From assembly GCF_964188315.1 (NCBI RefSeq), contig NC_135656.1, positions 81,406,001 to 81,470,000 on the forward strand: a stretch of 64,000 bases of DNA, written 5' to 3'. Both the position numbers and the translations under genes were made by a program. This document shows, in pieces, positions 5,421-45,469 of the stretch. The notes under the pieces are model-generated. The model ran no database searches. It was not told where the DNA came from and saw nothing but the letters and a program-made list of their open reading frames with translations. This DNA is from Podarcis muralis (taxonomy: Eukaryota). Position 1 is the first letter of the stretch, and each line of letters starts with the position of its first letter.

Positions 5421-5428
5421 TACACATA

Positions 5429-15883: not shown

Positions 15884-16167
15884 TTTAGAACTCAGGGTGG
15901 GATGGGGGAATCATAGTTCAGTCCATTCATGTTTGGTGGGTGGGTGGCATTTGACAACACATTTTCTCTCTCAAATCTTTATTGCATTGAAAATAATGCC
16001 ACCCAGCAGGCGCCAAGATCTTTCTCTTAAAGAAGGCGGCTGAAGGAAGGAATCCATTGAGGAAAGAGATTGTGGTGGCGGTGAAAACTACAACACGTTA
16101 AAAAAACCAAAATACTCACTTTGGATATTTAAGATTAAAGTGCAAAACAATAACAAAAGCTCAATAA

Positions 16168-16332
16168 TTCCTTCCAGTAGCACCTTAGAGACCACCTTAG
16201 AGACCACAAGTGTGCATGCACAGGGAAGCTCATACAAATAACAAACTTCGTTGGTCTCTAAGGTGCGACTGGAAGGAATTTTTTTATTTTGTTTCAACTA
16301 CAGCAGTCCAACACGGCTACCTACCTGTAACT
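16168..16332 (+). mobile_element. Penelope-like element terminus with short inverted tail
   Basis: ttccagtagcaccttagagacca is inverted relative to tggtctctaaggtgcgactggaa; ends aacacggctacctacctgtaact; 13-bp TSD aaaagc(t/g)caataa; same family as 25994. Confidence 0.75.
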
Positions 16333-22219: not shown

Positions 22220-23356
22220 CAGTGGTGCCTCGCAAGACGAAATTAATTCGTTCCGCAAGTCTCTTCGTCTTGCGGTTTTTTCGTCTTGCGATGCACGGTT
22301 TCCCATAGGAATGCATTGAAAATCAATTAATGCGTTCCTAGGGAAACCGCCTTCAGACCAGGTCCGGGGACAGTCTGTCCCCCGACCTCTTCTGAAGGCT
22401 GGGGGGGGGGGGACAAGGGCTTTTCTTCCCACTGCCAGCCTTCAGAAGGCTGTTCTGAAGGCTGGCGGTGGGAAGAAAAGCCCTTCTTCCCACCTCCCGC
22501 CCCGCAAGCTCCGGGGACAGGAGGGCTTTGCTGCCGACCGCCAGCATTTTAAAAGCCCCTGCTGTCCCGGGGCGATTTTAAAATGCTGGCGGGCGGGAGC
22601 GAAGTCTCCGCTGCCCCGAGGAGATTTTAAAATGCTGGGGGTCGGCAGCGAACGCTTCGCTCCCGCCCGCCAGCATTTTAAGATCGCCCGGGGCAGCGGA
22701 GAAGTCTCCGCTGTCCCAGGAAGGCAGGCGGGGGGAGCAAAGACTTTTGCCCCCGCCTGCCTTCAGAAGAGGTCCAGGACCTCGTTCCGATGCCCGGCGG
22801 CGGGGTGAGAGGTTCCCGCCCCCCCCGCCCCGCTTCGGGGCAGCGTTCCGAAGCGGGGCGGCTGGGGCAGGTGTTCCCGCCCCCCCGCCCCGCTTCGGAG
22901 CAGCGTTCCGAAGCGGGGCGGCGGGGGCAGGTGTTCCCGCTGCCCCCGGACCTCTTTTGAAGCAAGGGGCTGCGGGGAGATCGCTTTTCCCCGCAAACCC
23001 TTGCTTCAAAAGAGGTCCGGGGGCAGCGCGAAGCGCTTCCCGCTGTCCCCGGACCTCTTTTGAAGGAAGGGGAGGTGGGGAGAAGCGATCTCCCCGGAGC
23101 CCCTTGCTTCAAAAGAGGTCCGGGGGCAGCGGGAAGCGCTTCCCGCTGTCCCCGGACCTGGGGCTGCGGGGAGAAGATCGCTTCTCCCCGCCGCCCCTTG
23201 CTTCAAAAGAGAAGACCCGCTGTCCCCTGGGCAAGCTTCGTTTTGCGAAGCAAGCCCATAGGGAAATTCGTCTTGCGAGGCAACTCGAAAACGAAAAAAC
23301 CTTTCGTTTTGCGAGTTTTTCGTCTCGCGAGGCGTTCGTCTTGCGGGGTACCACTG
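22220..23356. mobile_element. Tigger-like MITE, 1137 bp, with GC-rich internal hairpin array
   Basis: TIRs cagtggtgcctcgcaagacgaa / ttcgtcttgcggggtaccactg, TA TSD; internal 60-bp and ~103-bp palindromic units. Confidence 0.9.
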
Positions 23357-25993: not shown

Positions 25994-26209
25994 TTCCAGT
26001 TACAGATGGGTAGCCGTGTTGGTCTGCCATAGTCAAAACAAAAAAAATTCCTTGCAGTAGCACCTTAAAGACCAACTAAGTTAGTTCTTGGTATGAGCTT
26101 TCGTGTGCATGCACACTTCAGATACACACTTCTTGTGTATCTGAAGAAGTGTGCATGCACACGAAAGCTCATACCAAGAACTAACTTAGTTGGTCTTTAA
26201 GGTGCTACT
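25994..26209. mobile_element. Penelope-like element terminus as a head-to-head inverted duplication
   Basis: ~77-bp inverted arms at 26052-26128 and 26136-26213; perfect 13-bp TSD gcaaaaatatgag at 25981-25993 and 26210-26222. Confidence 0.8.
26137..26174 (+). ncRNA. Minimal type I hammerhead ribozyme motif (Penelope-associated)
   Basis: GTAT-CTGAAGA-A-[GTGTGC AT GCACAC]-GAAA-GC-TC-ATAC: stem I gtat/atac, CUGANGA and GAAA cores, stem II, palindromic AAGCT in place of stem III; activity untested. Confidence 0.65.
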
Positions 26210-26254
26210 GCAAAAATATGAGGTTCATGCTTAGGCAAAACTTCTGAGGAACTT

Positions 26255-42590: not shown

Positions 42591-43240
42591 AGATCAGTCT
42601 ATATAGTATGTGAACCTGACCCAACAGGGTTTATCTGGAATAAGCAAATGAAAGAAAATATTACAAATATTATTCATGTAGTCAATGAGGTTAGCAGTTG
42701 CAAATAATTTCCTTTAGTGTTTCTTATTACCCAAAAAGCTTTTGATAATACTGAGTAGCTCTTTCTTTTTAAAGTACTAGACATCTTTAATGTTGATATG
42801 AACTAAAAAATAATAATGATTCAGAGTGTTTACATGAGGTATCAACCAAGCAATTGCTTTAATTTTATATGGTCAAAGGATATGGGATGACATTTCATCC
42901 CACTTTCACAATGGAAATCTTGCACAACAAATCTTCCTGTTTCTCATTACTGCCTGCAGCTTCCCTCCTCATGTGCTCCCAAAATCTGCTTTAGATGGTA
43001 CCTAAAGCCTTCAGAGCATATTTAGGAAGTACATAAGAGGCTGCAGGGGAAACTCTGTGTTAACACACAGAGAAAGAAACAACACTTCTACAATCTTTAA
43101 GAGATTATTTTCACTTCAGAATTTTTTGCTGCTTCAGAATTATTTCATGTTCTGTTTTAACCAGAAAAAGTTAGCAAGTGCTAGCAATGAAGTCGACCGC
43201 TGGTGCTCTTTCATTATTATTACTTTTAAATATCATTAGA

Positions 43241-43838
43241 TGTCATGGACTGGTTGGACGCAGAGGAATGGTGAGAGGAACCAGCTGGGGAAGCACCAAG
43301 GGAAGAATACTCAGAGCCTGGGGAGTGGTGGTAGGACAATGATGAATGGTCAGAGGAAGAAGGCGAAGAAGACTGGCAAAAGGCGGTGTGGGAAGCTGAA
43401 GAGGTAACAGGACTCAATAAGCTGGGAGAGGCAAAGAATCAGAGGCAGGAGCTGGAGCTGGAGCAGGAGGGTGGGAGGAGAGAGGCCAAGAGGCAGAGAC
43501 GAGTCAGGCTGGTGAACAATCACGGATGTCTCCCCCTCCTGCTGCAATAAGCTCCCCTCTCTCCTTGCCTCCCAGAACCAGAAGAGGCATGAAGAGAGCA
43601 GATGAGAGGTTGGTTGCATGCAGGCGCAATCTCCAATTGCTTGGGAAAAACACTGGAGAGGAAGCGACTTAGATGGCTGTGCGGAGGTGGGGATTTTCAG
43701 TTTCAGCAACTGTTCCATGGGACTCAAGACCTATCATTAGGCCTGACAGTCCACCAAGTATGCGCAGATTGTGTTTTTGCTAATAAAGAGTTAATTCCAA
43801 CTTCAATGCTGTGATTTATTGCCAGTTTCCTCCCGACA
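43241..43838 (+). mobile_element. Solo LTR, 598 bp
   Basis: tgtca...cgaca ends, AATAAA at 43782, 5-bp TSD tta(g/t)a. Confidence 0.8.
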
Positions 43839-45469
43839 TTATATGACCTGCCTTAATAGACAGGTAAAACCAGCCTCATCCAAATATTGTTATAAAATAG
43901 AATGGTTTGTCAAGCTGAATTTGATGTAGAACCTTTGCTATTGTTTCGCAGTTCTAAATATATTTAATGATTCACATATATGAATGATAATGCTTCAGTG
44001 CCTTATATTGCACTATATTTTCCTGCATTACTTACTACATTTTACCTTCGGGATTCTATATTAAAAAAAGTATATAGTTGCACACACAACCACTTTAAAA
44101 TATTAGTTTTCCCCCATATAGTGTTTTCTCCATGCAGCATCCAAAAAAGGAGAAAAAAATATTTTACTGAACAATCTCTCTATATAGGATGAATGAGGTT
44201 AAAAAAGAAAACCCAAAGTTTAGTAACTTATTTAGGATGCTTGCTTAGAATATTTGTACAATGTATTTCTGTGTGATAGGGTTTTTCCAAAAGATTCTGC
44301 CTGTTATACATTCTGTCCCACTCCACTTCAAAGAACTCTCATTGAAGAAAAAGATCATTATCCTTTCCAATAAAACTTCTGCTAAACAAGTAATTTTCAG
44401 TTTAGGAGCAGGTGACACTAAGATATCTCCCAAGGGCAGTGTATTTAGTCTTTATACATAACCAAACAAAACAGTTACGATGAAAGCCGGATGTTCTTCA
44501 GCCCTTGGATATAATGAAAACGTCAGCATTGTATGGAGTTTTGGAACTAGCAGTTTTACTAGAACCATTTAACATTTATCATCACCTTCTACAAGTGAGT
44601 TCTCAGCAACAAGAAAAGTTACATAAAGCAAACCATTCCTTCCTTTACTGTGCCTTCATGAGGAGGCAGATCTGTTTTTAATTCATTTGCATCTCTTTTT
44701 TTGGTGAAAACCGCCTGTATAATGAATTTTCTTGCTGTATGAAGGAAATGAAGACAAAAGACTGGTGAGAAGCTCTTGCTGTGTGGTAGCTTTGTCTGCT
44801 CATTGTTATTTGTCCTGCTTTTCCCATTTCTTCTCTCTCACTTTCCTCCTTTTGCCATAGTCTCATAGTTTCTTTTCCCCACTCCTGTCAAGTGAATGTT
44901 CTCTTGTTCCGTTCCCATTGCTCCTCCATCTTATGTGTCATATTGTCCCCACACCTCCATAGACCTGTTCAGTAAGTCATTGAGGGTGCAAATGGATTTC
45001 TGAATTGGGACTGTGTCCCCTGGCTCTACTCTCAAGCTCTAGGATTGTGAAAGAGCAGACCTACAGTATTCAAGGCTCCAACACATGTAGGTTCCCCTTG
45101 CATGACCCCTGCACAGTAAAAATGGAAGCTGCAAATCACACAAATAATTACAAATATCAGCCTCTAAGTGAGGACGGGAGAAAGGGCTTTCTCAGTCATC
45201 ATGGAACTCCTTTCCACTTCAATCACTTTGAAGGGAAAATGACTCAGTGCTGAATCTGATTCTGTGCTGAATTTGATGGCACAATTGATTTAGGTCGGTT
45301 GGAGGTCTAAGGAGCAGCATAAAACTACACCTTGTGGAATCAGTTTCAGTTGTTGCAGCCTCAGGATATAGGCAGGATGCTTGCAGTGATGGGGCCAACA
45401 ATATGTCCTCTTCATCCCTGCCCATTATGGCTGATAAAATATAGTAGGAGGGGATTGATTGGATGGGTC

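Follow-up and report, generated by a model that had tools for sequence, protein, structure and literature searches.

The solo LTR and its broken reading frame

The 64,000-nt stretch of Podarcis muralis DNA analyzed here (the window) carries at 43241..43838, on the forward strand, a 598-nt solo LTR with TG...CA ends that belongs to an old, high-copy family, likely of Tf1/sushi-type chromoviruses. The element that had been predicted at this place is bounded by a 5-bp target-site duplication, TTAGA on the left (43236..43240, forward strand) and TTATA on the right (43839..43843, forward strand), with one mismatch between the two, and an AATAAA at 43782..43787 (forward strand), 51 nt before the LTR end, is likely its polyadenylation signal. 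The locus has no internal region and its LTR recurs in many dispersed copies, which together define a solo LTR. The start of the window copy fits the Sushi-type motif TGTYANR and its 3′ end is off CNTNACA by one base; many other copies of the family match both. These are the end motifs given for the Sushi LTR model, and are common to rGmr1-type LTRs (PMC3601003).

A reading frame is open from LTR base 2. Its 5′ part, which is acidic, Trp-rich and 74% purine at the DNA level, occupies 43242..43429 (forward strand). The original prediction started the frame at an ATG at LTR base 5; this ATG is present at 43245, but it is the second codon of a frame that is already open. The acidic, Trp-containing peptide quoted there was recovered, with in-frame stops at 43272 (TGA) and 43332 (TAG). 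The 3′ part (43433..43672, forward strand) consists of an acidic linker, a Ser/Pro stretch and a basic segment, and ends as predicted at the TAG at 43670-43672, a codon that is a stop in 82% of 51 family copies. Within this part lie a basic PRTRRGMKR stretch (43571..43597, forward strand), similar to a Pro-basic stretch in the LTR of the decayed chromovirus L273, and the sequence RRNLQLL (43622..43642, forward strand), which sits at the position of the RRSARL of chromovirus family B and bears a weak likeness to it (both elements are described below). The two parts are separated by a loss of register that had been placed at 43480-43520; pairwise alignments with four natural copies locate it instead at about 43429-43438 (forward strand), where the window copy has a deletion amounting to a net loss of 10 nt relative to three of the four.

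As it stands, the window copy is a dead element for which no function is evident. It is matched with 0-1 differences over the listed pieces by contigs from a public run (X3), and the match covers the TAG and the frameshift, with the TGA at 43272 falling in a gap between pieces. In three RNA runs, of each of which 6-12% was read, all 23 reads on the window fit only partly, and its flanks had no depth, a result of little weight. The original prediction saw a similar layout in other LTR-like elements of the window, but a blastn search with 10 LTRs returned no second LTR-length match, only pieces of 20-29 nt, and a scan for TG..CA ends with target-site duplications found no further LTR of this layout.

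Chromoviruses whose Pol enters the 3′ LTR

Intact relatives of the window element have a Pol that runs through the integrase, a chromodomain and the polypurine tract (PPT), and then covers 330-630 nt from the start of the 3′ LTR. It stops near the site complementary to a self-priming primer-binding site (PBS), the predicted start of the RNA. Because Pol stops so close to this predicted start, nearly all of U3 would be coding in these elements.

Family A was reached through an H2C2 profile, with most of the 150 listed places bearing a 1557-codon frame, and a Pol of this length with the same tail was present in all three loci fetched. Two of these loci have clear LTR pairs, 99.7-100% identical, and in both the Pol frame crosses into the 3′ LTR at base 2 and has another 209 codons there. 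Pfam recognizes reverse transcriptase, RNase H, integrase, SH3_Tf2-1 and a DUF4939 Gag; the order along Pol is integrase, SH3 domain, a chromodomain-like stretch (read by eye, with no Pfam call), purine tract and 3′ LTR. The LTR-encoded tail is acidic first and basic last, and lacks RRSARL. Both LTR pairs have a self-priming PBS: 10-11 nt of it can pair with the 756-nt LTR at position 611, roughly 20 nt upstream of the stop. In comparison with a sister element, the tail (209 codons, no indel, dS 0.73) has a dN/dS of 0.28 (p 3e-11) and the core one of 0.08. Family A (L109-L111, L199) is very young and high-copy with identical LTRs, and a 150-residue acidic, Trp-containing linker between its chromodomain-like stretch and the PPT has a dN/dS of 0.53.

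Family B was found with DUF4939; among 20 loci fetched, three had no LTR pair and one lacked the end of pol. A canonical chromodomain lies upstream of the PPT. Sixteen elements have both LTRs and a frame that extends as far as the 3′ LTR, and in 13 of them 111-117 Pol codons lie inside that LTR. From base 2 the LTR-encoded residues start V-M-A-W, which makes the ATG at base 5 an internal Met of Pol, and they close with RRSARL. Self-priming PBSs occur in 11 of 17 LTR pairs. The tail has a dN/dS of 0.32-0.39 in three of four pairs (p 0.0025-0.008); the closest pair gives 0.70 (p 0.65). In the other three of the 16 elements (L161, L172, L175) a shift in a G-run ends Pol at the LTR start, and given these uncoupled copies the tail may not be needed in cis. 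The change in the PPT G-run of these three elements could stem from copying slippage, later mutation or assembly error.

Two decayed elements lie closer to the window LTR. In L185, a purine tract follows an SH3 domain and chromodomain and leads to an LTR that shares its first 13 nt with the window LTR; this LTR reads V-M-D-W, is acidic and has the base-5 ATG. This element is cut by another insertion, its LTR is not alignable beyond the start, and a frameshift separates the chromodomain frame from the LTR frame. In L273, the chromodomain is in frame with LTR base 2, with one stop between them, and the 584-nt LTR matches the window LTR at 12 of its first 13 bases and has a similar end. The peptide read from it was the best of 66 frames against a profile of six window-family copies (10.1 bits, E 0.0029), a score reached by none of 1000 shuffles. 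The likeness to the family B tail lies in layout only: hhalign gave 0.6%, not significant, between it and the window-family tail. Pairwise local alignments of the window tail with families A, B, D and E gave no p < 0.05. Another Gypsy family, seen behind a truncated window-family copy at L201:760-1250, has an LTR that also reads as an acidic, Ser/Pro and basic peptide, frameshifted in that copy.

The element in the window resembles the LTRs of Gypsy chromoviruses and is unlike the endogenous retrovirus (ERV) and Copia LTRs examined. ERV and Copia elements were rejected as owners on layout: from 20 integrase loci found with the rve profile, 10 gave an LTR pair and none of the 10 had such a frame, with one env overlapping its LTR by about 19 nt.

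No full-length parent of the exact window family was found by patterns, flanks, PBS, tblastn or DNA searches. What purine-tract patterns brought up was duplicated flanks and a few G-runs lacking Pol, besides the sister element L185; comparison of shared flanks gave other repeats and duplications only; and 30 of 59 matches to the predicted self-priming PBS pattern were examined and held no parent. Searches with tblastn of Pol and Gag against 155 loci matched only L185, L188 and L037, of which L037 is a different Gypsy element situated behind a window-family copy that is truncated, and hits to an unrelated LTR swamped the first DNA search started from L185. Long open frames in L086-L088 proved to derive from neighboring repeats or flanks. 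Because no element of the same family with internal sequence was found, the Pol junction of the window family is taken from its relatives.

On this comparative basis, the broken frame in the window is probably the fossil C-terminal tail of the Pol (integrase) of a chromodomain-type Gypsy element, encoded in the LTR. Such a tail would be translated only from full-length genomic RNA, through the 3′ LTR, as the last part of Pol. With an RNA start expected near the stop, the frame would be readable only from the 3′ LTR; from a solo LTR, RNA would begin near the end of the frame and the tail could not be made, and the window copy would have decayed neutrally. The tail itself can be pictured as a disordered, acidic-then-basic appendage of integrase.

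U3 coding sequences are familiar from MMTV sag and HIV nef, which are separate proteins made from their own RNAs, and the original prediction saw an LTR-borne accessory gene of this kind starting at base 5. Unlike those genes, the equivalent frame in the relatives forms the end of Pol without interruption. A small accessory protein of its own, begun at the base-5 ATG and made from a spliced or internally started RNA, is improbable, even though this ATG occurs in the window family, family B and L185 and is kept in the three family B elements in which Pol is uncoupled from the tail; selection on the frame is compatible with either model. Families A and E, however, lack the ATG but retain the register; 13 of 16 family B and 3 of 3 family A loci have a frame that runs on from Pol without a break; and the predicted RNA start lies near or after the stop. 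Two stranded RNA runs gave low sense coverage along a family B element, and none of the 709 reads on it, at this low depth, showed a joint into the LTR frame.

Protein databases hold traces of the same peptides. A Pfam search with the window-family peptide returned no family, and neither one peptide nor a six-copy alignment found longer homologs, a null of little weight. Among 1.84 billion representatives there were 17 matches; eight of the nine examined were LTR-peptide fragments without Pol and the ninth was an unrelated repeat protein. One automated UniRef entry from a lizard already holds the family B tail as part of Pol; the other eight UniRef matches to the family B query cover the chromodomain region only (three examined).

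Copies of the window family and selection on the frame

A DNA search of the genome with the window LTR yielded 4196 candidates, and among the 40 scored the best other copies are 73-80% identical. A 24-nt pattern from the LTR start, allowing at most one mismatch, had 1161 genome matches and none in the control, in searches that by their design selected for the presence of the ATG. Matches at 91 loci supplied 47 near-full copies; their median pairwise identity is 77.6%, and the tree they form is star-like for the most part, with some subfamilies in it. The family is old. TG/CA ends with a 5-bp duplication (at most one mismatch, in a permissive search) were found in 13 of 38 near-full copies, and every one of these 13, the copies with clear ends, is a solo LTR.

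Several copies, on four chromosomes (L081-L085, L053-L059), share 160-250 nt of upstream sequence, three of them 3 kb, and are probably duplications in zinc-finger gene clusters. In some of these copies the shared upstream DNA is open in register with the LTR frame for 48-59 codons, and a hypothetical lizard protein (P0019) matches the join of the two. One such duplication adjoins a frame read by eye as a SCAN-type domain.

Over the first 430 nt of 33 copies, all nine of the other stop triplets common to at least half of the copies lie outside the base-2 frame, and the tenth is the terminal stop of that frame (frames assigned from window coordinates). In dinucleotide shuffles, the base-2 frame was free of stops in 13 of 3000 and any sense frame in 40 of 3000. 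Private variants are spread evenly over the codon positions (93/101/97) and private gaps are divisible by three in 27 of 78 cases, as neutral decay predicts. Shared variants behave differently. Shared variants (those in at least 10% of copies) and private non-CpG variants were compared in a Mantel-Haenszel test stratified by transition and transversion; an unstratified version was discarded, as shared variants are rich in transitions. In 78 copies (31 of the 40 additional loci entering as fragments), shared variants are enriched in synonymous changes over private ones in the base-2 frame (OR 2.8, p 1.5e-4), with ORs of 0.74 and 0.78 in the other sense frames and of 1.85 (p 0.02) in one antisense frame. 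The signal is weaker at stricter sharing cut-offs (p 0.013 at 15%, 0.10 at 20%), and the same stratified test on 47 copies was borderline (OR 1.6, p 0.06). Shared indels inside the frame measure 12, 9, 18, 6 and 3 nt, beside four 1-nt indel columns, three of which are filled in five copies each with mixed letters and one of which is a gap in five copies; shared gaps in the 3′ non-coding part of the LTR measure 1, 8, 1 and 1 nt.

Because shared changes are enriched in synonymous variants only in this frame among the sense frames, the frame is taken to have been coding in the active lineage, and it can be concluded from these sequence comparisons that protein-level selection acted on it during the active period of the family and ceased thereafter, with the proviso that the variant test does not separate promoter constraint on the LTR DNA from protein constraint. 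The stop distribution in 33 copies and the shared-variant test in 78 thus agree with the original prediction of a family-wide coding feature that was once under selection.

The original prediction's own counter-proposal, in which purine-rich LTR DNA with a GAG/GAA bias yields the frame as a non-coding by-product, is very unlikely as a whole explanation. The purine content of the 5′ part, the lack of a Pfam family, the neutral private variants and the borderline 47-copy test would fit such a by-product; the rarity of a stop-free frame in shuffles, the respect for the frame among shared variants and indels, and the translation of the same register in relatives at a dN/dS near 0.3 speak against it. 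The least probable reading takes the LTR for that of a non-autonomous or non-chromoviral element, which would have acquired it by inheritance from a chromovirus and retained the frame by descent alone. It could appeal to the 155 loci examined without an internal region and to the shared, non-Pol upstream sequence on four chromosomes, but the latter sits in larger duplications and the synonymous-enriched differences between subfamilies require translation during the family's own history.

Known systems and a possible role of the tail

The Tf1/sushi V-clade (Sushi-ichi, Amn-ichi/ni/san) comprises vertebrate Gypsy elements with a chromodomain integrase and self-priming (PMC2774666, PMC6317226, PMC4131045). 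Families A and B show its self-priming PBS and family B also its chromodomain, a domain that is likewise attached to the look-alike LTRs of L185 and L273. In contrast, the Sushi U3 is described as T-rich, whereas here it is purine-rich and coding, and the portions of the Tf1/sushi descriptions compared contain no coding tail in U3.

A Pol that enters the 3′ LTR is already in print for plant chromoviruses. In CRM group A and Beta Bingo, the gag-pol frame extends into the 3′ LTR, and the LTR-encoded part of CRM group A includes a putative targeting domain, the CR motif (PMC3059260, PMC3605345). The likeness to CRM group A is that Pol runs into the 3′ LTR in relatives A and B, and presumably did so in the window family. 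The CR motif replaces the chromodomain in CRM, whereas family B keeps its chromodomain and adds a tail of 111-117 residues; furthermore, CRM is primed by tRNA-Met in plant hosts, whereas the relatives described here are predicted to be self-priming and live in an animal. For vertebrate chromoviruses or squamate solo LTRs, no description of Pol running into the LTR was found in the accessible full-text literature, though a mention in Butler et al. (2001) or Repbase is possible.

The HMGN motif RRSARLSA binds the H2A-H2B acidic patch (PMC12480509). The family B tail invites comparison with HMGN and Dsup in that RRSARL lies within a disordered-looking acidic and basic sequence, a match of six residues only; in the window family the motif is degenerate (R-x-S-L-x-L-L), and family A has none. 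From the place of the tail after the chromodomain, the precedent of the CRM CR motif and the match of RRSARL to HMGN, it may tentatively be proposed that the arginine motif of the tail would tether the integration complex to nucleosomes in the manner of HMGN. A nuclear localization signal or a nucleic-acid-binding role is equally compatible with the basic stretch.

A broader and similarly speculative view of the integrase tail is that the whole U3 of lizard chromoviruses could be a gene for a second, HMGN-mimicking integrase module, placed after the chromodomain and binding the acidic patch, which would have been kept across families whose LTRs have diverged beyond alignment, in parallel to CRM; solo LTRs might then be the fossil record of the tails of extinct families. 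An LTR-encoded end of Pol would account for the thousands of lizard solo LTRs that translate into acidic peptides and are picked up by gene predictors as hypothetical proteins, and in vertebrate Gypsy elements it would make one stretch of DNA both LTR and selected protein-coding sequence. If the tail does tether integrase to nucleosomes, it would offer a direct test of how vertebrate chromoviruses choose their insertion sites, and the young intact families in this genome allow insertion bias to be measured.

Other repeats were seen along the way. Several endogenous retrovirus families (L089-L101, L104, L106-L108) combine near-identical LTRs with gag, pol and env frames that are open over long distances; contig C20, where intact retroelements abound, carries many of these copies. 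Numerous two-LTR elements of only 2.1-3 kb (L203-L231), whose PBS resembles the one in the Copia elements of this genome, are probably a non-autonomous Copia family. Within the window, direct and inverted repeats of 49, 60 and 103 nt form a GC-rich array (22390-23210) in an element with ends similar to those at 5426, 13807 and 21322, and short MITE-like elements with long inverted arms occur at 25998-26213 and 16154-16332, the arms of the former including 68 perfectly matched nucleotides (26052-26213).
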